From NCBI RefSeq assembly GCF_024502345.1, contig NZ_JALDNN010000001.1: 64,000 bases of DNA; one strand, written 5' to 3'. This DNA comes from Escherichia coli (GTDB taxonomy: Bacteria > Pseudomonadota > Gammaproteobacteria > Enterobacterales > Enterobacteriaceae). Shown piece after piece: positions 1 through 26,418 of this stretch (within the stretch, counting starts at the first letter, position 1; every line of letters starts with the position of its first letter). The position numbers were made by a program, and so were the translations under genes. The notes beneath the pieces were generated by a model, which was not told where the DNA came from, ran no database searches, and worked only from the letters and a program-made list of their open reading frames with translations.

Positions 1-74
1 ATCTTTCCCCGGTGACAAAGTGCTAATTGGTCTGTAATGTTCAATGTGTGGCAGGCAAGCCGCCGGTGACTTAG

Positions 75-1270
<1,196 letters not shown>

Positions 1271-1439
1271 TTAATATAAAGACACAAGCAGAGACATTTT
1301 TGGCACGATATAAAAACGCTAAGTTAAAAAATCACTATGACGTGTTGGGTATCAAATGTTCACTGGCATAAACCTCTGTTTCTGATGTAAAACAGATTTT
1401 CTGAGGAGGCGTAAAACCTCCTCGTACTGCGAAATTGAT

Positions 1440-1940
1440 TTAGTGATAGCGATCGATCACGCCAACCAGATAGTGGTCGGTTTGCTGCATGTTGATGCCC
1501 GCTTTTTTAGCGCTGCGGACTTCATCCAGAATGATTTGCAACAGCGTCCCGTCCACGATTTCCTCTTTTCTGTATCGCTTCAGGAAGTTAATCGCTGACT
1601 TATCGTTTGCTGCCTGGGCGTCTTCCGTCAAAGAGGTCAGCGCATTAATGCGCTTCTGGTAATCGCTTACCGTCTGCTCAAACAGATCTTCCAGCGTGGA
1701 AAATTCACCGCACCGGGCGTGTTGCTCCTGTAACACCGGCGTGGCGCCGCTCTGTTTGATGTATTCGTACATGCGCATCATTTGCGTCACCGTATTTTGC
1801 GCCTGATGACGCAAAAATAGTGCGGTGCCATTAAGGCTATTCTCGCTGCACCTCTGGCTGAGCTGAAGATACAAATTTGAGGTATAAAACTCCTGATTCA
1901 TTTGCGCATTCAGTTTTTGAACTATTCCGCTAGCGATCAT
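1440..1940 (-). CDS. ferritin-like protein (bacterial non-heme ferritin family, FtnB-like), 166 aa
   Basis: 166-aa ORF with ferritin-like sequence pattern (N-terminal NQEFYTSNLYLQ, C-terminal LLQIILDEVRSAKKAG); isolated between the IS5-like element and IS26. Confidence 0.7.
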   Translation of the reverse strand: MIASGIVQKLNAQMNQEFYTSNLYLQLSQRCSENSLNGTALFLRHQAQNTVTQMMRMYEYIKQSGATPVLQEQHARCGEFSTLEDLFEQTVSDYQKRINALTSLTEDAQAANDKSAINFLKRYRKEEIVDGTLLQIILDEVRSAKKAGINMQQTDHYLVGVIDRYH

Positions 1941-2358
1941 AGGACTTCCTTATTTCTTGTCATCTCAGAAAACGGTCACTCTTCGAAAAAATAACCAGAA
2001 TAAAAGCGATTCTTTCGCTTTTTTTATTGCGCCTGGTTACGCAGTCATATTCATTTTAAGTCGGGATGCTCCTTATTTAAATATCCAACCCTACTATCGC
2101 ATTTCTATCTGGCATTATTCTGTGATGGTGTTTCGATATTCACACTCCCTGTGCCAATCCTTTCTTATCGACAGTAGGAAACTTCCTCCGGCTATTCTGC
2201 TGAACACGATTAGGGGCACTGTTGCAAAGTTAGCGATGAGGCAGCGTTTTGTCTTATTCAAAGGCCTTACATTTCAAAAACTCTGCTTACCAGGCGCATT
2301 TCGGGTGATGCTGCCAACTTACTGATTTAGTGTATGATGGTGTTTTTGAGGTGCTCCA

Positions 2359-2634
2359 GTGGCTTCTGTTTCTATCAGCTGTCCCTCCTGTTCAGCTACT
2401 GACGGGGTGGTGCGTAACGGCAAAAGCACCGCCGGACATCAGCGCTATCTCTGCTCTCACTGCCGTAAAACATGGCAACTGCAGTTCACTTACACCGCTT
2501 CTCAACCCGGTACGCACCAGAAAATCATTGATATGGCCATGAATGGCGTTGGATGCCGGGCAACCGCCCGCATTATGGGCGTTGGCCTCAACACGATTTT
2601 CCGCCATTTAAAAAACTCAGGCCGCAGTCGGTAA
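2359..2634 (+). CDS. insA: IS1 InsA (91 aa)
   Basis: Protein [43 protein letters not shown] matches IS1 InsA with its zinc-finger-like Cys pattern. Confidence 0.95.
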
Positions 2635-3056
2635 CCTCGCGCATACAGCCGGGCAGTGACGTCATCGTCTGCGCGGAAATGGACGAACAGTGGGGATACG
2701 TCGGGGCTAAATCGCGCCAGCGCTGGCTGTTTTACGCGTATGACAGGCTCCGGAAGACGGTTGTTGCGCACGTATTCGGTGAACGCACTATGGCGACGCT
2801 GGGGCGTCTTATGAGCCTGCTGTCACCCTTTGACGTGGTGATATGGATGACGGATGGCTGGCCGCTGTATGAATCCCGCCTGAAGGGAAAGCTGCACGTA
2901 ATCAGCAAGCGATATACGCAGCGAATTGAGCGGCATAACCTGAATCTGAGGCAGCACCTGGCACGGCTGGGACGGAAGTCGCTGTCGTTCTCAAAATCGG
3001 TGGAGCTGCATGACAAAGTCATCGGGCATTATCTGAACATAAAACACTATCAATAA
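2553..3056 (+). CDS. insB: IS1 InsB reading frame (InsAB' transposase produced by -1 frameshift)
   Basis: ORF overlapping the insA 3' end in the -1 frame; slippery motif AAAAAAC at 2610-2616; protein matches IS1 InsB. Confidence 0.93.
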
Positions 3057-3066
3057 GTTGGAGTCA

Positions 3067-3765
3067 TTACCGCATTTCGCCCAGGGGATCACCATAATAA
3101 AATGCTGAGGCCTGGCCTTTGCGTAGTGCACACATCACCTCAATACCTTTGATGGTAGCGTAAGCCGTCTTCATGGATTTAAATCCCAGCGTGGCGCCGA
3201 TTATCCGTTTCAGTTTGCCATAATCGCATTCAATCACGTTGTTCCGGTACTTAATCTGTCGGTGTTCAACGTCAGACGGGCACCGGCCTTCGCGTTTGAG
3301 CAGAGCAAGCGCGCGACCATAGGCGGGCGCTTTATCCGTGTTGATGAATCGCGGGATCTGCCACTTCTTCACGTTGTTGAGGATTTTACCCAGAAACCGG
3401 TATGCAGCTTTGCTGTTACGACGGGAGGAGAGATAAAAATCGACAGTGCGGCCCCGGCTGTCGACGGCCCGGTACAGATACGCCCAGCGGCCATTGACCT
3501 TCACGTAGGTTTCATCCATGTGCCACGGGCAAAGATCGGAAGGGTTACGCCAGTACCAGCGCAGCCGTTTTTCCATTTCAGGCGCATAACGCTGAACCCA
3601 GCGGTAAATCGTGGAGTGATCGACATTCACTCCGCGTTCAGCCAGCATCTCCTGCAGCTCACGGTAACTGATGCCGTATTTGCAGTACCAGCGTACGGCC
3701 CACAGAATGATGTCACGCTGAAAATGCCGGCCTTTGAATGGGTTCATGTGCAGCTCCATCAGCAA
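3067..3765 (-). pseudogene. tnpA: IS26 transposase (Tnp26) disrupted by IS1
   Basis: Protein MNPFKGRHFQRDIILWAVRWYCKYGISYRELQ matches IS26 Tnp; likely start codon at 3745-3747. The frame runs into the IS1 end and stops at 3067-3069; the native C-terminal codons (LVSRVFEM) lie on the other side of IS1 at about 2267-2302. Confidence 0.88.
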
Positions 3766-3810
3766 AAGGGGATGATAAGTTTATCACCACCGACTATTTG
3801 CAACAGTGCC

Positions 3811-4053
3811 GAGCAGATTGTCTTTGCCCTGAAGCAGGCTGAGCTGGGTACGCCCGTACCGGAAGTCTGCCGCAAGCTGGGCATCTCCGATGCCACGTTC
3901 TACACCTGGCGCAAAAAGTACGGCGGGATTTCTCCTTCAGAGCTGAAACATATGCGGCAGCTCGAAGAGGAAAACCTTCGCCTGAAGAAGCTGGTTGCCG
4001 ACCTGAGTCTCGACAAGGCCATGCTGCAGGACGTGCTGGCAAAAAAGAGCTGA
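3811..4053 (+). pseudogene. IS3-family orfA fragment (HTH / leucine-zipper part), N-terminus removed by IS26
   Basis: Frame is open from the IS26 boundary: AEQIVFALKQAELGTPVPEVCRKLGISDATFYTWRKKYGG...LAKKS, stop at 4051-4053. The ORF-track entry 3262-4053 is an artefact that reads back across IS26. Confidence 0.75.
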
Positions 4054-4253
4054 CGCTGGCACGCCTGCGCGAGTGGGTCAGGGACTTACAGACCCGCTAC
4101 GGTGCCAGTGAAAGACAGGTCTGCTTTGCGCTGAAGATCAGCCGCAGTTCGTTCCGGTACCGCTCCGTTGCGGCAGACGACAGCGCACTGCGACTGCGCA
4201 TCAGGGAGATAACCGAAACCCGTGTCCACTATGGCTACCGCAGAGTCCACGTC

Positions 4254-4895
4254 ATGCTGAAACGGGAAGGCTGGCGCGATAATCACAAGCGTGTTTACCG
4301 GCTTTACCGCGAGCAGGGATTATCGCTGCGGCTGAAACGCCCCCGCCGCAATAAATCTGCGCTGAAACGTCAGCCACAGCCGCAGGGGCTGTATCCCAAT
4401 CATGTATGGGGGATGGATTTTGTCTCCGATGCGCTGTTTGACGGTCGCCGGCTTCGCCTGCTGACGGTAATCGATCTCTACACGCGCGAATGTCTGGGGA
4501 TCTGCGTGGGCCAGAACCTGCGCTCTTCAGAAGTGGCGGAGATGCTGGACACTATCGCGTTGAGACGCCCATTACCGCAGCTACTGAAGACAGATAATGG
4601 CTCTGAATTTGCAGGGAAAATGCTGGATAAATGGGTGTACGAACGTGATATCCGGATCGATTTCTCACGGCCAGGCACGCCCACGGATAATGCTACGGTG
4701 GAGTCATTCAACGGCAGGCTGCGGCAGGAGTGCCTGAACGAGAACTGGTTTATGTCCAAGGAGGATGCCCGGTGCAAAATCGAGGTCTGGCGCATACACT
4801 ATAACCAGAGTCGTCCCCATTCTGCACTGGGCTGGATGACCCCGTGCGAATTCGCCGAGAAATCTGCCGGTTGCCAGAATAAGCAACCAACCTGA
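4254..4895 (+). CDS. IS3-family orfB (integrase-core domain), probably expressed as an OrfAB fusion
   Basis: The -1 frame relative to orfA is open from about 4047 (KKELTLARLREWVRDLQTRYGASERQVCF); the ORF track starts it at M4254; integrase-core C-terminus (RPHSALGWMTPCEFAE). Confidence 0.8.
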   Translation: MLKREGWRDNHKRVYRLYREQGLSLRLKRPRRNKSALKRQPQPQGLYPNHVWGMDFVSDALFDGRRLRLLTVIDLYTRECLGICVGQNLRSSEVAEMLDTIALRRPLPQLLKTDNGSEFAGKMLDKWVYERDIRIDFSRPGTPTDNATVESFNGRLRQECLNENWFMSKEDARCKIEVWRIHYNQSRPHSALGWMTPCEFAEKSAGCQNKQPT

Positions 4896-4915
4896 AGCCG
4901 GTTATTCCTGATTAT

Positions 4916-4947
4916 AGGCTCCGTTTGGGAAACGGAAAATATTGTAC
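4916..4947. repeat. outer 32 nt of a Tn3-family 38-bp terminal inverted repeat (copy a), split by an IS110-family insertion
   Basis: AGGCTCCGTTTGGGAAACGGAAAATATTGTAC resembles the intact IR at 15751-15788 (GGGGTCCGCTTGGAAAACGGAAATTATCCCAC read from outside); the remaining GTTAAG follows the IS at 6311-6316. Confidence 0.6.
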
Positions 4948-6310
4948 TATAAGGGCTTCCCCGGCATGTCAACGCCGGTTTTATAGTTTCTGTCTGCTCG
5001 TCAGTAAAATAAAGGGGAGAGACTGCGGTACTATAAACGGCCATGATAAATCGTTATCGATTCGGGCCCTGATGAAAGACGCGCGTGAGGTTCTTGTTCG
5101 TTAAGCGGATACGTATATCCTGTACAATAGCCAGATAGGCCTCACGGGGTCTAACCCTTTTTCATCAACGAGTTGCAGGTCAGATGGTTATACTGCTTTG
5201 TGCTTTAGCTGGCTGAGTACAGCCTGAAATCATCACCGTAATGCAACGATGCCCAGCACAGCCTCGCGTTTTTGGCGGCGATGGCTACAACAGCCCGCCA
5301 GTACCCCCTGCGCTCAACCAACTTACAAACCCAACGGCTGAATGAGTCAGTCCTTTTCTCTGCACCAATCAAAACCGAACGGGCCCCCTGAACCAGAAGC
5401 GTTCGCAGATATGAATCGCCCGCTTTCGTTATTCTGCCAAGCTTTGATTTTCCGCCACTGCTGTACTGTGATGGTGTAAGTCCCAGCCAGGCTGCCAGTT
5501 GGCGTCCATTCTTAAAATCATGGGCATTACCGATACTGGCGACCAGCGCACAGGCCGTTGTGGGACCAATCCCTTTCAGTTCCATCAGTCGTTGGCTGCG
5601 GTGATCCGTTTTTGCCATGCGGGACAGGATCCGGTCATATTCAGCGATGTTATCTTCAATGCGATTAATGTGTTCCAGCAGATCATCAACGCATTGCTGA
5701 ACCTGAAGCGGCAAAGAATTCTTCTGTTCAGAAACGATGTGGCGCAGGGCATCTGTACTTTGTGGAGCGATGACGCCGAATTCAGATATCAAACCTCTTA
5801 ATCGGTTATATGTTGCTGTTTTCTCTTCGATAAAACCTTGTCTGGTACGGTGTAGACATTGCATCGCCTGCTGGCTCTCATCCTTCACTGGCACGAACCG
5901 CATATGCGGGCGACGGACAGCCTCACAAATAGCCTGGGCATCAGCTGCATCATTTTTTCCTGATTTACCGGCCATGCGATATGGCGATACGAACTTTGCA
6001 GCCATCAAACGGGGCTCATGGCCATACTGCCGAAACACTCTTGCCCAGTAATGGGCGCCTGAGCACGCCTCCATCCCGATAACACAGGGAGGCAGGCTTG
6101 CAATTAACTCAGGAAGTGCAGCACGCGATACTTTAGGTTTAACCAGAACAGTTTTTCCATTTTGATCAACGCAGTGAACAGCGAACACATTTTTAGCAAG
6201 ATCGATACCGACAGTAGTGATAGTCATAACGAATCCCTCCAGGGCTATGTTTACCCCATGATTGCACAAGAGCTAATCAGGCACATATCCAGGGGAAGTC
6301 CCTTCCATTC
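4948..6310 (-). mobile_element. IS110-family insertion sequence, copy A (IS1111 / IS4321-IS5075-like), 1363 bp
   Basis: Bounded by TATAAGGGCTTCCCC (4948-) and GGGGAAGTCCCTTCCATTC (-6310); contains one IS110-family transposase gene; inserted inside a Tn3-family IR with no target duplication. Confidence 0.85.
5205..6227 (-). CDS. IS110-family transposase (340 aa from MTITTVGIDLAKN)
   Basis: N-terminal VGIDLAKN motif typical of IS110-family transposases; the ORF track begins 14 codons upstream, but copy B starts at the MTITTVGID methionine (6225-6227 here). Confidence 0.88.
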   Translation of the reverse strand: MTITTVGIDLAKNVFAVHCVDQNGKTVLVKPKVSRAALPELIASLPPCVIGMEACSGAHYWARVFRQYGHEPRLMAAKFVSPYRMAGKSGKNDAADAQAICEAVRRPHMRFVPVKDESQQAMQCLHRTRQGFIEEKTATYNRLRGLISEFGVIAPQSTDALRHIVSEQKNSLPLQVQQCVDDLLEHINRIEDNIAEYDRILSRMAKTDHRSQRLMELKGIGPTTACALVASIGNAHDFKNGRQLAAWLGLTPSQYSSGGKSKLGRITKAGDSYLRTLLVQGARSVLIGAEKRTDSFSRWVCKLVERRGYWRAVVAIAAKNARLCWASLHYGDDFRLYSAS

Positions 6311-6350
6311 GTTAAGATCAAATTTTAACCTGTAATACACTGATAAATTA

Positions 6351-6382
6351 GGGGCCCGCTTGGAAAACGGAAAATATCCTAC
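6351..6382. repeat. outer 32 nt of a Tn3-family 38-bp terminal inverted repeat (copy b), split by the second IS110-family insertion
   Basis: GGGGCCCGCTTGGAAAACGGAAAATATCCTAC, then the IS, then GTTAAG at 7746-7751 running directly into the tnpA remnant; together these reconstruct a 38-bp IR closely matching 15751-15788. Confidence 0.75.
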
Positions 6383-7745
6383 TATAAGGGCTTCCCCGAA
6401 CAGTCAACGCCGGTTTTTAATTTCTGTCTGTTCATCAATGAAAGGCAAGGGATAAGACTGCGCTACTATAAACGGTCATGCTGAATCGCTAGTGATTCGG
6501 ACCCTGATGAAAGACGCTCGTGAGATCCTCCTTCGTTAATCGGATAGTGATATCCAGTAGGATATGCAGATACTTCTCACGGGGGTCTAACCCTTTACCA
6601 TCAACAATTTACAGTTCAGTTACTACTCAGTTAAATTTTTCATGTTGTTGAATACAGTCTGAAGTCATCGCCGTAATGTAATGATGCCCAGCACAACCTC
6701 GCATTCTTGGCGGCGATTGCAACGACAGCACGCCAGTATCCCCGCCTACCAATCAACGAGCAGACCCAACGGCTAAACGGGTCCGTTCTATTCTCTGCCC
6801 CTACCATTACAGAACGGGCTCCCTGGACCAGTAGGGTTCGCAGATAGGCATCACCCGCTTTTGTTATCCTGCCAAGCTTTGATTTTCCGCCACTACTGTA
6901 TTGTGATGGCGTTAGCCCCAACCAGGCTGCCAGTTGGCGCCCGTTCTTAAAATCATGGGCATTGCCAATACTGGCGACCAGCGCACTCGCTGTGGTGGGC
7001 CCAACACCTTTCAGTTCCATTAACTGCTGGCTGCGATGATCTGTTTTGGCCACACGAGATAATACCCTGTCATATTCGGCGATTTTCTCTTCAATATTAG
7101 TGACATGTGTCAATAGATCATCAATGCACAGCCTAACCTGTACTGGCAGAGTTTCCTTCTGGTCAGAAACAACATGACGCAGAGCATCAGTGCTTTGTGG
7201 GGCAATAACCCCGAATTCAGATATCAGGCCCCGAAGACGGTTATACGTTGCTGTTCTTTCCTGGATAAATCCCTGTCTTGTCCGATGTAAGCATTGCATT
7301 GCCTGCTGGCTTTCGTCTTTGACTGGTACAAAGCGCATATGCGGCCGCTGCACTGCCTCACAAATAGCTATTGCATCAGCTGCATCATTTTTCCCGGTCT
7401 TACCCGCCATGCGATAGGGTGAGACAAATTTCGGAGCCATCAACCGGACATCATGGCCATACTGCCTGAATAATCTTGCCCAATAGTGGGCACCCGAGCA
7501 GGCTTCCATTCCAATGACACAGGGAGGTAAACCTGCGATGAGTTCAGAAAGTGCTGCACGCGACACCTTGGGTTTAACCAGAACAGCTTTACCATTTTGG
7601 TCAATGCAGTGAACAGCAAACACATTTTTAGCAAGATCGATACCGACAGTGGTGATGGTCATAACGAATCCCTCTGGGTCAATGTTTATCCTATGATTGC
7701 ACGAAAGTTAATCAGGCGCATATCTAGGGGAAGTCCCTTCCATTC
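6383..7745 (-). mobile_element. IS110-family insertion sequence, copy B, 1363 bp
   Basis: Same termini and same length as copy A; the transposase is about 88 percent identical to copy A by eye; inserted at the equivalent position of a second IR copy in the same orientation. Confidence 0.85.
6640..7662 (-). CDS. IS110-family transposase (340 aa)
   Basis: Intact ORF, a paralogue of the copy A transposase. Confidence 0.9.
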   Translation of the reverse strand: MTITTVGIDLAKNVFAVHCIDQNGKAVLVKPKVSRAALSELIAGLPPCVIGMEACSGAHYWARLFRQYGHDVRLMAPKFVSPYRMAGKTGKNDAADAIAICEAVQRPHMRFVPVKDESQQAMQCLHRTRQGFIQERTATYNRLRGLISEFGVIAPQSTDALRHVVSDQKETLPVQVRLCIDDLLTHVTNIEEKIAEYDRVLSRVAKTDHRSQQLMELKGVGPTTASALVASIGNAHDFKNGRQLAAWLGLTPSQYSSGGKSKLGRITKAGDAYLRTLLVQGARSVMVGAENRTDPFSRWVCSLIGRRGYWRAVVAIAAKNARLCWASLHYGDDFRLYSTT

Positions 7746-7746
7746 G

Positions 7747-8088
7747 TTAAGCCTGTTTTTTATACAGACTGCTATCTACTGAGCGTAACGAACGGTATTT
7801 TCCCTGTCCCAGCTTGAGGTTTGTTCGCCAGACGTAATCTCCACTCAAGTTGATGTGTTCCCATCCCAGCGGGGACAGATGAGAAATCAGCTGTTCATTT
7901 AGTGGGATCCCTTTTCGCTTCAGAGAATCTATGGCTCTTTCTATATATACCGTATTCCACAGTGAGATCGCCGCAGTCAGCAATGTCAGCCCGCTGGCCC
8001 GGTAGCTCTGGTTTTCCAGTCCCCGGTCTCTGATTTCCCCCAGCCGGTGCATAAAGACTGCTCGCGCTATAACAGCGCCCCCCCCCAC
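7747..8088 (-). pseudogene. tnpA: Tn3-family transposase TnpA, C-terminal remnant (about 110 codons)
   Basis: [53 protein letters not shown]...LYKKQA parallels the C-terminus of the intact TnpA at 12771-15755; ends next to the split IR; similarity is lost upstream at a poly-C tract near 8078-8086. Confidence 0.8.
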
Positions 8089-8267
8089 GAATCCCTGAAT
8101 AACCTGACACCGGAAGAGTACCGGCTGATGGCTGAAACCCCGGAAATCTCAAAAAGTGCGCGGAACTAAATCGGGTGACATAAAAAATTTCGAATGCTAA
8201 GAGGGCCGGCAGTCACCAGTAAAACCATAATGAGTAACTGCCTGATTAAAGTTGTGGGGATGTATAA

Positions 8268-9044
8268 TTAAAGATTAACGACTTCACCATCTTCAGGGAT
8301 ACTAACCTGGTCAGTAATCTTATTAAGATCTACATACTCATGGATTTCTTTTCGGGTTTGTCCAAAATGATTTACAGATTCCATATGTGTGGAAATAATA
8401 TGTGCTTTTGGAAGTATGTTATGTGTCCTTAGCACATCTTCTTTACCCATGATAATAGGCCCCAGATTTTCCACCTGCGCATATCCCGTATTCAGGATAA
8501 CGATATCAGGCTGATATTTATGCATAACCTGCTCTACATCATTAATCCAGATAGTATCACCAACTATATAGATAGTCTTTTCGCCATCAGACTGGAGAAT
8601 AACCCCCATAGCTTCACCTAATAGCTCTGCCGCAGCGGGGTTGCGGAATGCCTCATCACTACCATGTTGACAGTGAGTTGGAATTAAGCGAATTCCGGCG
8701 TATTCAATTTCATTATCAAGAACTTGTAGGTTAATAAATCCATCGCGGGCCAGTTCGTTTTTGTCTTCAGTATTCTGTACAAAAATAAGCATATCGCGAG
8801 GGATCAGCGCCCGGGCAGCAGCATCCCAGTGGTCATCATGCGTATGAGTAACAATAATAGCATCTACATCAATAACCTCTGATACCGGTAGAGGTAAGTC
8901 AACAAGAGGGTTCCGTAAATGGCGGTTCATCGTCAATGGAAAACCAGGGAATGAACCTTTTGCTGATAACATCGGGTCAATCAGGATTTTTTTTCCTGCA
9001 TAATGAATAATTGCAGTGGCGTTACGGATCTGATGAAATTTCAT
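8268..9044 (-). CDS. MBL-fold metallo-hydrolase (258 aa)
   Basis: Metal-binding motif THTHDDHWD (HxHxDH); no N-terminal signal peptide, so not an obvious secreted class B beta-lactamase. Confidence 0.8.
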   Translation of the reverse strand: MKFHQIRNATAIIHYAGKKILIDPMLSAKGSFPGFPLTMNRHLRNPLVDLPLPVSEVIDVDAIIVTHTHDDHWDAAARALIPRDMLIFVQNTEDKNELARDGFINLQVLDNEIEYAGIRLIPTHCQHGSDEAFRNPAAAELLGEAMGVILQSDGEKTIYIVGDTIWINDVEQVMHKYQPDIVILNTGYAQVENLGPIIMGKEDVLRTHNILPKAHIISTHMESVNHFGQTRKEIHEYVDLNKITDQVSIPEDGEVVNL

Positions 9045-19507: not shown

Positions 19508-20565
19508 GGCTTTGTTGAATAAATCAGATTTCGGGTAAGTCTCCCCCGTAGCGGGTTGTGTTTTCAGGCAATACGCACGCTTTCAGGCATACCTGCTTTC
19601 GTCATTTTGTTCAGCGCTCGTACCAGGGCCATAGCCTCTGCAACCTGACCATCGTAGTCACGCAGTGTCAGTGAACCCCCGAACAGCTGTTTTACCCGGT
19701 ACATCGCCGTTTCCGCTATCGAGCGACGGTTGTAATCTGTTGTCCATTTCCACCGCGCATTACTCCCGGTCATTCGCTGATTAGCCACTGCACGGTTACG
19801 GTCTGCATATTCACCGGGCCAGTAACCCGCACCTTTTCGGGGAGGGATAAGCGCGCTGATTTTCTTACGCCGCAGTTCATCGTGACATAGCCGGGTATCG
19901 TAAGCGCCATCGGCGGCGGCTGACCTGATTTTCCGGTGGGTTTGCCGGATTAACCCGGGGAAGGCCTCTGAGTCCGTAACGTTGTTCAGCGACAGGTCAG
20001 CGCAGATGATTTCATGTGTTTTACTGTCAACGGCGAGATGCAGCTTACGCCAGATACGGCGGCGTTCCTGGCCATGCTTTTTGACTTTCCACTCGCCTTC
20101 ACCGAAGACCTTCAGCCCGGTGGAATCAATTACCAGGTGTGCGATTTCACCCCGGGTGGGCGTTTTGAAACTGACATTAACCGACTTTGCCCGCCTGCTG
20201 ACACAGCTGTAATCCGGGCAGCGTAGCGGAACGTTCATCAGAGAAAAAATGGAATCAATAAAGCCCTGCGCAGCGCGCAGGGTCAGCCTGAATACGCGTT
20301 TAATGACCAAGCACAGTCGTGATGGCAAGGTCAGAATAGCGCTGAGGTCTGCCTCGTGAAGAAGGTGTTGCTGACTCATACCAGGCCTGAATAGCTTCAT
20401 CATCCAGCCAGAAAGTTATGGAGCCACGGTTGATGAGGGCTTTATTGTAGGTGGGCCAGTTGGTGATTTTGAACTTTTGCTTTGCCACGGAACGGTCTGC
20501 GTTGTCGGGAAGATACGTGATCTGATCCTTCAACTCAGCAAAAGTTCGATTTATTCAACAAAGCC
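19508..20565 (-). mobile_element. IS903-like element, copy 1 (1058 bp), flanked by a 9-bp target duplication
   Basis: IRs GGCTTTGTTGAATAAATC at 19508- and inverted ending 20565; direct repeats CCTCGTTTC at 19499-19507 and 20566-20574. Confidence 0.93.
19564..20533 (-). pseudogene. IS903 transposase, frameshifted
   Basis: Split into two ORFs (20300-20533 and 19564-20403); relative to copy 2 there is a 1-nt insertion near 20309-20310 (accaagcac versus accagcac). Confidence 0.9.
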
Positions 20566-20598
20566 CCTCGTTTCCTCTCTTCATGACACCCTGACTCA

Positions 20599-23177: not shown

Positions 23178-25361
23178 CTAAGCGCGTTTGATTTCAACCA
23201 GGTTGGTATGTTGCGGGTTCCCTTTCGCCAGCGGCGACGGCAGGTGGCTGGTCAATGTGTTAATACATCCACCCACGTCCACACCGTTGCTGTCCAGTCG
23301 GGTCCACGCGCCTTGCGGCATTGCCACCACGCCCGGCAGGATGCGCTGTGTCACCTTGCAGGGGATCTCCACCACACCGCGATCGTTGAATACATGGACC
23401 ATATCGCCTGATTTCAACTGACGCACGCTGGCGTCTATCGGGTTGATCCAGACTTCATCCGGTACCGCTTCATGCAGCATCAGCACACTGGCATATGTTG
23501 AGTGCGTGTGACCTTTGGTGTGAAAACCGCTCATCTGTAGCGGATACTTTGCTGTCAGACTCTTGTTCAGATGGGACTCTGTCACTATACAAAATTCAGG
23601 AACAGCCGGAATGCGATCTCCTTCCGGTAGTGTCCAGGCTTTAGCCAGTTCCGCCAGAGTGTGCGAGTAAATCTCAATCTTCCCGGAAGGTGTCGTCAGT
23701 GGACTGGCAACCGGATCATGGCGGAAATCAGCAAGGATAATACTGTCCTCATCACGAGTACCTTGCTGATCGATAACCCCCATATTCATTGCAACTTCCC
23801 ATTCAGGCAGATATGATCGCTTCTCTTTAACTTGTCCGTAATGCTTCGCCATCCACTCTGCCTGAGTACGCCCCTCAGTAAAACGCTCTCTTACCCCAAG
23901 ATGCCCCGCAATATCTGCACAGATATCATAGGTACTGCGTACTTCCCACATCGGTGTGATCGTTTTTTGCATTGCAATCATGTAATGGTGAGAACCGGCT
24001 GCATAGGAACTGTCCACCAGATCCTCGGCTTCTAAGTAGCTAGTTTCTGGAAGAAGGATATCGGCAAAGCGGGCACTGGCAGTCATATGATTATCAATAA
24101 CCACGATAGTTTCGCACAGGCTGTCATCTTCAAGTATTTTGCGTGTACGATTGATATTTCCATGTTGATTCAGAAGTGCATTCCCGGCCTGGTTGAAGAA
24201 CAGTTTAATACCGGTTTTCAGTTTATCCGCGCCTTTAACCCCCATAGTGGTGGCTGTCATTTTTTCCGGACTTTGAATCGCATCTGTCCACAGATAGCAG
24301 GGGATTGACACCTTAACGGGATTTTCACCAATCGGCAGAGCAGGAACACCATAAGGTGTTCCGTATGTCCAGTTCCCATTGTTGGTTCCTGGCAATCCAA
24401 AATGACCCGTCAGGGCAGGAAGTATCTGAACCGCTCTGGAAGTCTGTTCACCATTTGCATGACGCTGTGGCCCCCATCCCTGGGCAATGAAACAGGCCCG
24501 AGCTTCGGCCATTTCACGTGCCAACTGGCGAATACGAATAGCCGGGATGCCACAGATATCTGCCGCCCATTCAGGTGTTTTTTCGACGCCGTCATCACCG
24601 TTACCCAGAACATAGTCTTTATAACTGGCATTTGGTTTCGCCGTTTCCGGAAGGGTGCTACGATCATAACCGACACAATAAGTATTGACTCGTTCTTCGT
24701 CGATCAGATTTTCTTTTATCAACGTGTGTGCAATAGCTGCTACCAGTGCAGCATCGGTTGTAGGGCGAATTGGTAACCATTCAGCATGTTCTGTAACAAC
24801 AGAGTCTGTATAGCGCGGATCGATGATAATCACCCGGGCGCCTGATATTTCCAGCGCACGGCGCAGTTCTTCAACTTGCCCACCACCGGACATCCGAGTC
24901 TCAGATAAATTCAGACCAAAAAAAACCACAAGATCAGAATGCGCAATCTGGCTAAAATGACTGGCAAACTGTACTCCTGTAGCACCATACGTGTAAGATG
25001 TGGCGGTAAAGTTTTGAGCGTTTGAGTAATTATTGTAATACTGCAGAAAACCGCCATTCAGGTTCAATAACCTTTTCCATGCGGGTGTTCCTTGGTTATG
25101 ATAATACGCGCCAGATTGATAATTAAAATAGATTGCTTCATTTCCATATTTTTCAGAAACGCGCTTTAATTCAGCGGCAATAAAGGCTGTGGCCTCATCC
25201 CATGAAATACGTTTAAATTTCCCTTCTCCGCGTTTACCAACACGTTTCATCGGATATTTAATCCGGTCAGGGCTGTAAACTCGCCAGCGGCTGGAACGAC
25301 CTCGCAGACAGGGACGGATTTGGTGTTCACCGAATACCGAATCATCCTTAGCATCTTCCGG
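23178..25361 (-). pseudogene. DmsA-like molybdopterin oxidoreductase catalytic subunit, 5'-truncated by IS903 copy 2
   Basis: Frame stays open to the IS903 boundary (PEDAKDDSVFGEHQIRPCLRGRSSRWRVYSPDRIKYPMKRVG) and matches DmsA from about residue 85; the Tat signal and N-terminal Cys-cluster region are missing. Confidence 0.88.
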
Positions 25362-26418
25362 GGCTTTGTTGAATAAATCGAACTTTTGCTGAGTTGAAGG
25401 ATCAGATCACGTATCTTCCCGACAACGCAGACCGTTCCGTGGCAAAGCAAAAGTTCAAAATCACCAACTGGCCCACCTACAATAAAGCCCTCATCAACCG
25501 TGGCTCCATAACTTTCTGGCTGGATGATGAAGCTATTCAGGCCTGGTATGAGTCAGCAACACCTTCTTCACGAGGCAGACCTCAGCGCTATTCTGACCTT
25601 GCCATCACGACTGTGCTGGTCATTAAACGCGTATTCAGGCTGACCCTGCGCGCTGCGCAGGGCTTTATTGATTCCATTTTTTCTCTGATGAACGTTCCGC
25701 TACGCTGCCCGGATTACAGCTGTGTCAGCAGGCGGGCAAAGTCGGTTAATGTCAGTTTCAAAACGCCCACCCGGGGTGAAATCGCACACCTGGTAATTGA
25801 TTCCACCGGGCTGAAGGTCTTCGGTGAAGGCGAGTGGAAAGTCAAAAAGCATGGCCAGGAACGCCGCCGTATCTGGCGTAAGCTGCATCTCGCCGTTGAC
25901 AGTAAAACACATGAAATCATCTGCGCTGACCTGTCGCTGAACAACGTTACGGACTCAGAGGCCTTCCCCGGGTTAATCCGGCAAACCCACCGGAAAATCA
26001 GGTCAGCCGCCGCCGATGGCGCTTACGATACCCGGCTATGTCACGATGAACTGCGGCGTAAGAAAATCAGCGCGCTTATCCCTCCCCGAAAAGGTGCGGG
26101 TTACTGGCCCGGTGAATATGCAGACCGTAACCGTGCAGTGGCTAATCAGCGAATGACCGGGAGTAATGCGCGGTGGAAATGGACAACAGATTACAACCGT
26201 CGCTCGATAGCGGAAACGGCGATGTACCGGGTAAAACAGCTGTTCGGGGGTTCACTGACACTGCGTGACTACGATGGTCAGGTTGCAGAGGCTATGGCCC
26301 TGGTACGAGCGCTGAACAAAATGACGAAAGCAGGTATGCCTGAAAGCGTGCGTATTGCCTGAAAACACAACCCGCTACGGGGGAGACTTACCCGAAATCT
26401 GATTTATTCAACAAAGCC
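25362..26418 (+). mobile_element. IS903-like element, copy 2 (1057 bp), without target duplication
   Basis: IRs GGCTTTGTTGAATAAATCG at 25362- and inverted ending 26418; flanks ATCTTCCGG and CCGGTTGAA are not a direct repeat. Confidence 0.93.
25394..26362 (+). CDS. IS903 transposase (intact; likely 307 aa from the GTG at 25439)
   Basis: Matches IS903/IS102-type transposase as recalled (KQKFKITNWPTYNKALINRGS...MPESVRIA); the ORF track extends it upstream to a TTG. Confidence 0.92.
   Translation: MKDQITYLPDNADRSVAKQKFKITNWPTYNKALINRGSITFWLDDEAIQAWYESATPSSRGRPQRYSDLAITTVLVIKRVFRLTLRAAQGFIDSIFSLMNVPLRCPDYSCVSRRAKSVNVSFKTPTRGEIAHLVIDSTGLKVFGEGEWKVKKHGQERRRIWRKLHLAVDSKTHEIICADLSLNNVTDSEAFPGLIRQTHRKIRSAAADGAYDTRLCHDELRRKKISALIPPRKGAGYWPGEYADRNRAVANQRMTGSNARWKWTTDYNRRSIAETAMYRVKQLFGGSLTLRDYDGQVAEAMALVRALNKMTKAGMPESVRIA

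Follow-up and report, generated by a model that had tools for sequence, protein, structure and literature searches.

An IS1 within IS26 beside an IS3-family remnant: a probable multi-step history of ordinary transposition in Escherichia coli

IS26, as described by Harmer and Hall, is an 820-bp element with perfect 14-bp terminal repeats and a transposase of the IS6/DDE_Tnp_IS240 type; the repeats of its family are 14 bp long, start with GG and carry a G at base 7 (PMC6807381). Its action always yields cointegrates, and its copy-in reaction causes adjacent deletions, the target duplication being split between the two products (PMC9602291). The typical footprint of copy-in or deletion is a single IS26 without target duplication, lying against a truncated neighbor. 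Even when its transposase gene is dead, an IS26 is still usable as a target by another IS26, at a 30-fold lower frequency (PMC4196232). IS1 normally duplicates 8 or 9 bp of its target (PMC12065110), and IS110-family elements of the IS4321/IS5075 type habitually target 38-bp terminal repeats of the Tn21 type (PMC6052338).

Such elements adjoin one another in the window, by which we mean the whole 64-kb stretch of E. coli DNA that was analyzed. The locus is an ordinary insertion-sequence pile-up that records local rearrangement and is nothing new in kind. We consider it probable that a series of ordinary transpositions has left its layers here, in an accessory region with many insertion sequences. 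Its IS26 and the adjoining sequences are laid out as follows.

1440-1940, minus strand: gene for a non-heme ferritin-like protein (NCBIfam NF011597, 209.9 bits, cutoff 154), the left neighbor of IS26
2207-2214, plus strand: tnp-distal IS26 flank CGATTAGG, absent at the opposite IS26 end
2215-3810 (1596 bp), tnp on the minus strand: interrupted IS26, delimited by 14-bp terminal repeats and comparison with other copies
2215-2303, minus strand: IS26 nt 1-89 from the tnp-distal end, with the terminal repeat at 2215-2228 and displaced tnp26 codons
2267-2293, minus strand: the displaced last 8 tnp26 codons and stop (LVSRVFEM, stop)
3067-3747, minus strand: truncated tnp26 coding sequence, 226 aa, its TAA stop contributed by the IS1 end
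3072-3810, minus strand: IS26 nt 82-820, with the truncated tnp26 and the tnp-proximal terminal repeat at 3797-3810
3811-3818: tnp-proximal IS26 flank GAGCAGAT, the first IS3-family bases

The 64-kb window contains just two copies of the 14-bp repeat GGCACTGTTGCAAA, which begins with GG and bears G at base 7: one at 2215-2228 (plus) and one at 3797-3810 (minus), against 0.05 expected by chance. The 1596 bp from 2215 to 3810 resolve into 820 bp of IS26, 768 bp of IS1 and 8 bp of one repeat copy, and the 820 bp left on removing IS1 and that copy show 3-5 differences from 12 other IS26 copies. The window copy shares its length, perfect repeats and transposase type with the described IS26, as well as the single-copy footprint against a truncated neighbor, and departs from it in having an IS1 at nt 89 from the tnp-distal end, a 226-aa transposase and the substitutions H176Y and R206C. 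Its flanks, CGATTAGG and GAGCAGAT, match at 0 of 8 positions, whether read directly or as reverse complement; the check for a duplication on exact alignment was negative, in agreement with the initial annotation, which had described IS26 as lacking a flanking 8-bp repeat. This lack is the expected outcome of a deletion, a cointegrate or a recombination, and we caution that a missing target duplication beside IS26 does not by itself prove an adjacent deletion. The 64-kb window holds no second IS26 and no reverse-complement flank that would mark an inversion partner, and an Rfam scan of positions 1-9000 returned nothing at gathering score.

The sequence that interrupts IS26 comprises the following.

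2304-3071, plus strand: complete IS1, 768 bp, with both terminal repeats, insA, the A6C run and an open insB' frame
2359-2634: insA, within IS1
2610-2616: A6C slippery run of IS1
up to 3056: open insB' frame
2296-2303 (left) and 3072-3079 (right), plus strand: IS1 target duplication GCATTTCG

This IS1 has imperfect terminal repeats of ~23 bp (GGTGATGCTGCC... and GGTAATGACTCC...), with its ends found once each in the 64-kb window (2304-2326, plus; 3049-3071, minus; 0 expected by chance), and the insA, A6C frameshift site and insB' that specify the InsAB' transposase; the encoded domains match Pfam Zn_ribbon_InsA, HTH_Tnp_IS1 and DDE_Tnp_IS1 and NCBIfam IS1. With a copy annotated as IS1B family in another record (L006) it shares 99.9% identity, and in length, terminal repeats, insA, slippery site, insB' and duplication size there is no notable difference from known IS1B-like isoforms, the target merely happening to be another insertion sequence. 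GCATTTCG, which stands on both sides of IS1, is single-copy in intact IS26 by comparison with L003, and its 8 bp fall within the 8-9 bp usual for IS1. A C is present both before the left repeat and as the last base of IS1, so that the sequence could formally be read as a 767-bp IS1 flanked by a 9-bp repeat; we favor the 8-bp duplication because canonical IS1 measures 768 bp. IS1 is a simple insertion into IS26 with target duplication, and it has left the last transposase codons on its far side, both as initially annotated.

The same IS26 copy bears three private substitutions, which lie beyond what the initial annotation had covered.

3132 (R206C), 3157 (silent, A197) and 3222 (H176Y): private G>A changes in IS26, C>T on the coding strand

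These changes were not found in the PLSDB copies, the best of which reach 99.0-99.1% identity. The truncated tnp26 product still matches NCBIfam IS6 at 269.5 bits (cutoff 125) and Pfam DDE_Tnp_IS240. In the family signature E-DH---K, the window copy has a tyrosine in place of the histidine (ECDYGKLK); His176 is reported to be completely conserved across the IS26 family (PMC6807381) and is present in 24 of the 25 other sequences of our alignment. The element is a mutated member of the IS6/IS26 group, not of another family. From the loss of eight codons and the replacement of the signature histidine, we predict that this IS26 is probably dead. The earlier statement that IS1 inactivated it is an inference: IS1 removes eight C-terminal residues, none of them covered by the NCBIfam IS6 model or the Pfam DDE domain, and leaves the two ends of IS26 unbroken. 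An exact-protein look-up had no record of the mutated 226-aa Tnp26; the only entries for the unmutated 226-aa form are products ended by contig ends or scaffold gaps. In annotation, the window IS26 should be flagged as interrupted and probably non-autonomous.

On its left, this IS26 belongs to a widespread module composed of an ISKpn26-like IS5-family element, the ferritin-like gene and IS26. The same ferritin-like protein with an adjoining IS26 occurs in many plasmids and chromosomes, and the assembly collection lists the identical protein in 9349 of its blocks. The ferritin-side junction, CGATTAGG against the IS26 end, does not vary among the loci compared that have this flank, whereas on the far side every other copy examined has a different flank: the 11 intact ferritin-adjacent IS26 copies display nine different far-side junctions, none with a duplication. 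The ferritin-side junction is old and widespread, and its invariance, set against the variable far-side flanks, indicates that IS26 was resident beside the ferritin-like gene first and that the junction with the IS3-family element came later. This changes the opening of the earlier order of events, in which the IS3-family element preceded IS26. Its final step fares better: the arrival of IS1 is likely to be the last event, after the IS26/IS3-family junction, though no more than likely because a transposase-dead IS26 can still be targeted by another IS26.

On the right, IS26 adjoins the following.

3811-4915, plus strand: IS3-family remnant, nt 105-1209 of 1237, without the first 104 bp and the last 28 bp
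3811-4053, plus strand: orfA', from codon 9 (MKKSRFTE/EQIV...) by comparison with intact copies
4041-4047: A6G slippery run of the IS3-family remnant
ending at 4895: IS3-family orfB, in the -1 frame (NCBIfam IS3, 251.4 bits, cutoff 160)
absent from the whole window: left part of the IS3-family element, ...TTTACCGAAGAGCAGAT

The remnant was aligned to intact or partial copies in nine records (L001, L002, L009-L011 and L022-L025); P0151 is 100% identical. It shares with the IS3 family an orfA with an HTH_Tnp_1 domain, the A6G run, a -1 frameshift and an orfB with an rve DDE domain. Intact relatives end in TG...CA terminal repeats, whereas both ends are missing in the window, which makes this a remnant of nt 105-1209 and not a complete element. 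The ends are kept in relatives: L022 and L025 have the left repeat TGACCCTGACCC, and L009 has the right repeat ...GGGGTCAGGGTCA. One intact relative (L002) is flanked by a 4-bp duplication, TATG, which is the sole hint of the IS407 group suggested initially. The first IS3-family base, 3811, lies directly at the tnp-proximal IS26 end and falls in codon 9, so that the mid-frame start of orfA exactly at the IS26 end, reported initially, is confirmed. The truncation reported there is likewise real, but a second cut, at the right end (4915), had been overlooked: exact comparison places the right boundary at 4915/4916, the next 38 bp being a Tn3-type terminal repeat. This cut is common to L022 and L025 and is therefore older than the IS26 junction. 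The closest relatives have a 2-nt shorter A-run and hence are not the direct parent of the remnant.

The junction at 3811 was at first attributed to an adjacent deletion within one molecule, by which all DNA between the resident IS26 and nt 105 of a downstream IS3-family element would have been removed. This fits a junction lying exactly at the IS26 terminal base without a duplication, is a known outcome of IS26 activity (PMC9602291), and agrees with the absence from the 64-kb window of both the left end of the IS3-family element and its upstream genes, as seen to its left in L024 and L025. However, no record has both modules linked on one molecule, and a pre-deletion parent with ferritin-IS26 upstream of an intact IS3-family element was not found: L024 and L025, in which the left end is intact, carry other genes there and no ferritin-IS26 module within the 8-10 kb covered on that side. 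Moreover, two other routes lead to an identical junction. We regard the adjacent deletion as a serious candidate, if somewhat short of an even chance. One apparent parent, L003, was rejected: the partial IS3-family gene that lies there, 3.3 kb past the same IS26, is unrelated to the window element.

The sequence beyond the remnant bears on one of these other routes.

4916-4947 and 6311-6316: first 38-bp Tn3-family-type terminal repeat, which cuts off the IS3-family right end and is split by an IS110-family element
4948-6310, transposase on the minus strand (~5205-6227): first IS110-family element, 1363 bp (NCBIfam IS110, 360 bits)
6351-6382 and 7746-7751: second 38-bp repeat, split at the same position as the first
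6383-7745, transposase on the minus strand (6640-7662): second IS110-family element, 1363 bp (NCBIfam IS110, 357 bits)

The two IS110-family elements are ~80% identical to each other and sit at the same insertion point (..TAC^GTTAAG), in the same orientation, within 38-bp repeats of the GGGG...TAAG type. With a DEDD transposase, no terminal repeats of their own and site-specific insertion into 38-bp Tn21-type repeats at a fixed position and orientation, they are of the IS4321/IS5075 type. Those two elements measure ~1.33 kb; the window elements are longer, at 1363 bp, and the repeats into which they have inserted differ from those of Tn21 itself. Both sites are empty in L025, to which the intervening stretches of the window (3811-4947, 6310-6382 and 7745-8581) are 99.8-100% identical. 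This right-side backbone occurs without the ferritin-IS26 module in L024 (E. coli, a contig of 2.9 Mb) and L025, and the module itself is found on many plasmids and chromosomes with a different partner each time, as might be expected if the IS26 of a ferritin-bearing replicon had attacked GAGCAGAT on another replicon and fused the two. Such an intermolecular copy-in accords with the cointegrates that IS26 action always yields (PMC9602291). Against it, the 60 kb that follow the junction on the right contain no second IS26; the window contains a single IS26 with only 2.2 kb to its left, so that the second copy of the cointegrate may lie outside it, or may later have been lost. We hold this route to be possible but on balance unlikely.

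Over the 588 bp adjoining the IS3-family junction, the window copy does not differ from ordinary IS26, and for this reason neither recombination with another IS26 nor an assembly misjoin would be visible there. Two pre-existing IS26 copies, one on the ferritin side and the other inserted in the IS3-family element, might have exchanged by homologous recombination or by the targeted conservative reaction, with an invisible crossover in this segment; as inactivity of the transposase gene lowers the use of an IS26 as a target 30-fold without abolishing it (PMC4196232), the exchange could even postdate IS1. However, it requires one event more than copy-in, and no record in PLSDB or among the representative genomes has an IS26 at that site of the IS3-family element, which makes it rather improbable. 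A misjoin of two different genomic IS26 copies through their shared sequence is conceivable for a repeat sequence, but very improbable: IS1 insertion with an exact duplication cannot come from mis-assembly, each flank is separately colinear with independent records, and the length of the contig, 64 kb across many insertion sequences, points to long reads or a finished assembly. Neither the IS26/IS3-family junction (in PLSDB and GTDB species-representative genomes) nor the four-element region (in complete E. coli genomes) was found elsewhere. Likewise, the nested IS26::IS1 gave no single-piece match in PLSDB (both IS26/IS1 junctions), GTDB representative genomes or metagenome contigs, nor the whole composite in complete E. 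coli genomes. Multi-piece matches of 100% coverage (H140-H147) are actually a complete IS26 beside an IS1B. The exact base-level history of the region could serve as a lineage marker.

Taking the layered record of ordinary transposition as the preferred reading, we propose the following course. IS26 already stood beside the ferritin-like gene, its tnp-distal end against CGATTAGG, as comparison with many records shows, and separately a 1237-bp IS3-family element had lost its last 28 bp to a Tn3-family-type end, as L022 and L025 attest. In a replicative copy-in attack, the IS26 transposase may then have used GAGCAGAT, the 8 bp at nt 105-112 of the IS3-family element, as its target and joined the tnp-proximal IS26 end there, separating off the first 104 bp of that element and all beyond. 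The attack could have been intramolecular, an adjacent deletion releasing a circle with the lost DNA, or intermolecular, giving a cointegrate; the junction geometry fits both, so the sequence reads alike for either. IS1 entered IS26 at a point 89 bp from its tnp-distal end and duplicated GCATTTCG, presumably at this stage; it cut eight codons from tnp26 and moved the tnp-distal end 776 bp from the rest. The three C>T coding-strand changes, including H176Y, may reflect decay of the disabled IS26. The two IS110-family elements later entered the two 38-bp repeats, as the empty sites of L025 show.

The position of IS1 near the tnp-distal IS26 end has parallels in other loci. IS1 abuts ferritin-adjacent IS26 at nt 10 (L008), 21 (L006), 89 (the window) and 100 (L007), in one shared orientation, and at least three distinct IS1 variants, of 91-97% mutual identity, are involved. 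That the ~100 bp at this end form a preferred IS1 landing site or deletion endpoint strikes us as doubtful. The ends of IS26 and IS1 have a GGnnnTG motif in common, and given this shared motif the ends of IS26 might attract the IS1 transposase.

The nested insertion reported in the initial annotation is confirmed exactly to the base, whereas the history proposed for it is only partly supported. Exactly two copies of the IS26 terminal repeat, GGCACTGTTGCAAA, are present in the 64-kb window (2215-2228, plus strand; 3797-3810, minus strand), where chance predicts 0.05, and each IS1 end has a single occurrence (2304-2326 for one, 3049-3071 for the other), delimiting an IS1 of 768 bp. Directly outside each IS1 end lies the duplicated octamer GCATTTCG (2296-2303 and 3072-3079). 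The 1596 bp from 2215 to 3810 are the sum of 820, 768 and 8 bp, and the 820-bp IS26 that remains on removing IS1 and one repeat copy shows three to five differences from other IS26 copies. Given that the base preceding the left IS1 repeat and the last IS1 base are both C, the duplication could formally be 9 bp long and IS1 767 bp; target duplications of 8 and 9 bp are both usual for IS1 (PMC12065110). The truncated IS26 transposase (Tnp26) ends in ...GDPLGEMR, followed by a TAA contributed by the IS1 end; the codons severed from it (LVSRVFEM plus the stop) are found beyond IS1 at 2267-2293. IS26 lacks a flanking 8-bp repeat, with CGATTAGG on the side of the ferritin-like gene and GAGCAGAT on the IS3 side having no position in common, and the adjoining IS3-family orfA begins mid-frame, base 3811 being the first base of codon 9 relative to intact copies. 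The IS1 itself looks intact: its two ends, insA and the A6C slippery run are all present and the insB' frame is open. It shares 99.9% identity with a copy that carries an IS1B-family annotation. The encoded proteins were assigned by HMM tests, each family match scoring above its curated cutoff.

Protein family assignments in and around the nested elements
1440-1940: left neighbour, a non-heme ferritin-like protein
3067-3747, minus strand: truncated Tnp26; NCBIfam IS6, 269.5 bits (cutoff 125), and Pfam DDE_Tnp_IS240
within IS1, 2304-3071: InsA and InsB'; IS1 models
within the IS3-family remnant, 3811-4915: OrfA'; HTH_Tnp_1
within the IS3-family remnant, 3811-4915: OrfB; NCBIfam IS3, 251.4 bits (cutoff 160), and Pfam rve and rve_3
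within 4948-6310 and 6383-7745: two downstream transposases; NCBIfam IS110, 357-360 bits

In the assembly collection, 9349 blocks index a ferritin-like protein identical to the window's, and IS26 stands at the same spacing from its gene in eight of the ten places shown. The 8 bp adjoining IS26 are CGATTAGG in every fetched locus with a ferritin-side flank; the 11 intact IS26 copies display nine distinct far-side junctions (e.g. ATTTTTTT, CCTGCAGG, TCCTCCTG and TTTTGGCC), and none repeats CGATTAGG at the far side. This comparison shows that the ferritin-side junction is old and the opposite side variable: IS26 resided beside the ferritin-like gene first, its transposase-proximal end has repeatedly switched partners, and GAGCAGAT with the IS3-family remnant is one further such partner. 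An IS26 insertion into the IS3-family element followed by deletion, the order initially proposed, is therefore replaced by one in which a resident IS26 gained the junction. The stretch 71-2214, comprising an ISKpn26-like IS5-family element, the ferritin-like gene and IS26, belongs to a very widespread Enterobacterales module found on plasmids and chromosomes, which is preceded in most other places shown by a Gp49-family and helix-turn-helix (toxin-antitoxin-like) gene pair.

The partner itself can be reconstructed from its relatives. A full-length protein of 368 aa, P0151, matches OrfB at 100% identity; its contigs, from an E. coli assembly (L022/L024) and a Logan assembly (L023/L025), match window positions 3811-4947, 6310-6382 and 7745-8581 at 99.8-100%. 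They keep the intact left end of the IS3-family element, 104 bp (TGACCCTGACCC...ACCGAA) that are missing from the window, and the genes to the left of it are unrelated, none being present in the window. On the right, plasmids of Klebsiella and Raoultella (L009-L011; compared at about 5150-5185 in L009) carry a remnant of 99.4% identity that retains the end ...GATTAT|GCATGGATCATATTCGGGGTCAGGGTCA, so the window remnant lacks the last 28 bp, right inverted repeat included; the full element is thus 104 + 1105 + 28 = 1237 bp. A 38-bp Tn3-family-type repeat, AGGCTCCGTTTGGGAAACGGAAAATATTGTACGTTAAG, cuts this right end at one base (4915/4916) in the window, L022 and L025, and is followed by a 33-bp spacer, a second such repeat and a Tn3-family tnpA; being common to all three, the cut predates the IS26/IS3 junction. 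Both repeats are uninterrupted in L025 (9161-9310), which presents the empty sites, and each window copy holds a 1363-bp IS110-family element (4948-6310 and 6383-7745). These two elements are ~80% identical to each other and sit at the identical point, ..TAC^GTTAAG (window 4916-7751), matching the known habit of IS4321/IS5075-type elements of inserting into such repeats (PMC6052338). The A6G slippery run is normal in the window (4041-4047) and two A's shorter in the otherwise 99.8% identical copies of L022 and L025, joining orfA and orfB into the single 368-aa frame of P0151, which is either a natural transposase variant or a homopolymer error.

IS26 moves solely via cointegrates, and its intramolecular copy-in produces an adjacent deletion, with the 8-bp duplication split between the retained molecule and the excised circle (PMC9602291). 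The geometry of the IS26/IS3 junction matches such a deletion, as the initial annotation held, but two other routes account for it equally well, and we regard the deletion as a possibility somewhat short of even. Intermolecular copy-in, whereby IS26 has its former flank at one end and the new target at the other, yields an identical junction, and copy-in by Tnp26 in either form is the likely origin. The third route, exchange with a second IS26 previously inserted in the IS3-family element, seems unlikely. Over the 588 bp of IS26 adjoining the junction the sequence does not differ from ordinary IS26, so that a crossover in that stretch would go unseen. The 64-kb window holds no second IS26. A search for a parent molecule linking the ferritin-IS26 and IS3-family modules found none. 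Mis-assembly of the junction is highly improbable.

IS1 removes only residues 227-234 of Tnp26, leaving the IS6 model match (residues 4-210), the DDE domain (residues 75-212) and both IS26 ends untouched. Since lengths of about 221 to 254 aa occur among IS26-family transposases (PMC6807381) and the severed tail coincides in part with a GExRxVxxxF pattern that is loosely conserved in the alignment, inactivation by truncation alone is plausible but unproven. Three private changes, C>T on the coding strand (G>A in the window), cluster within 91 bp beside IS1, at 3132 (R206C), 3157 (silent, A197) and 3222 (H176Y), and occur in no copy in the PLSDB plasmid collection. His176, the histidine of E-DH---K, is reported to be a completely conserved family signature (PMC6807381) and is present in 24 of the 25 other sequences aligned, so the window Tnp26 is probably dead now. 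Two of the changes are amino-acid substitutions, which fits decay after disruption, though three changes are too few for a test. Placing IS1 last, as initially proposed, follows from the need for an active IS26 in making the IS26/IS3 junction; this reasoning loses force because a frameshift in the transposase gene still leaves IS26 usable as a target, with the frequency lowered 30-fold (PMC4196232), and because homologous recombination is transposase-independent. Many short-read public assemblies break within IS26 at one base (...GAAATGCGCC; L028-L033), and the 226-aa "truncated Tnp26" products that mimic the window's truncation there were rejected as contig-end or scaffold-gap artefacts.

Neither IS1/IS26 junction has a single-piece match in PLSDB, and no complete E. 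coli genome has one for the four-element region or the nested composite; apparent composite matches in E. coli plasmids proved to be IS26 adjoining IS1B, not nested. The left IS26/IS1 junction has no exact match in the GTDB species-representative genomes or metagenome contigs searched, the IS26/IS3 junction is absent from PLSDB and the representative genomes searched, and an exact-protein look-up returned no record of the mutated Tnp26. The elements and mechanisms are all well known, and this is a single local instance, not new in kind; the configuration is of use as a lineage marker and for accurate annotation.

In other loci, IS1 meets the same ferritin-adjacent IS26 end at nt 10 (L008, 5916-5925), nt 21 (L006) and nt 100 (L007), as compared with nt 89 in the window. 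These copies share one orientation with the window IS1, to which they are 96.9%, 99.9% and 91.1% identical, respectively, and at least three IS1 variants are represented at this end. In L017, a Tn3-type repeat cuts the same IS26 at nt 44. We give an IS1 hotspot at this end low probability, because the choice of query biased the sample and three further IS1 copies in the vicinity (L034-L036) lie outside IS26. Further along the window, 19508-20567 and 25360-26418 form a perfect inverted repeat of ~1.06 kb (802 + 258 nt arms, 100% complementary) bracketing ~4.8 kb; its match to IS903B-like sequence of L009 and L010 (about 97.5-97.7%) points to a probable pair of IS copies arranged like a composite transposon.
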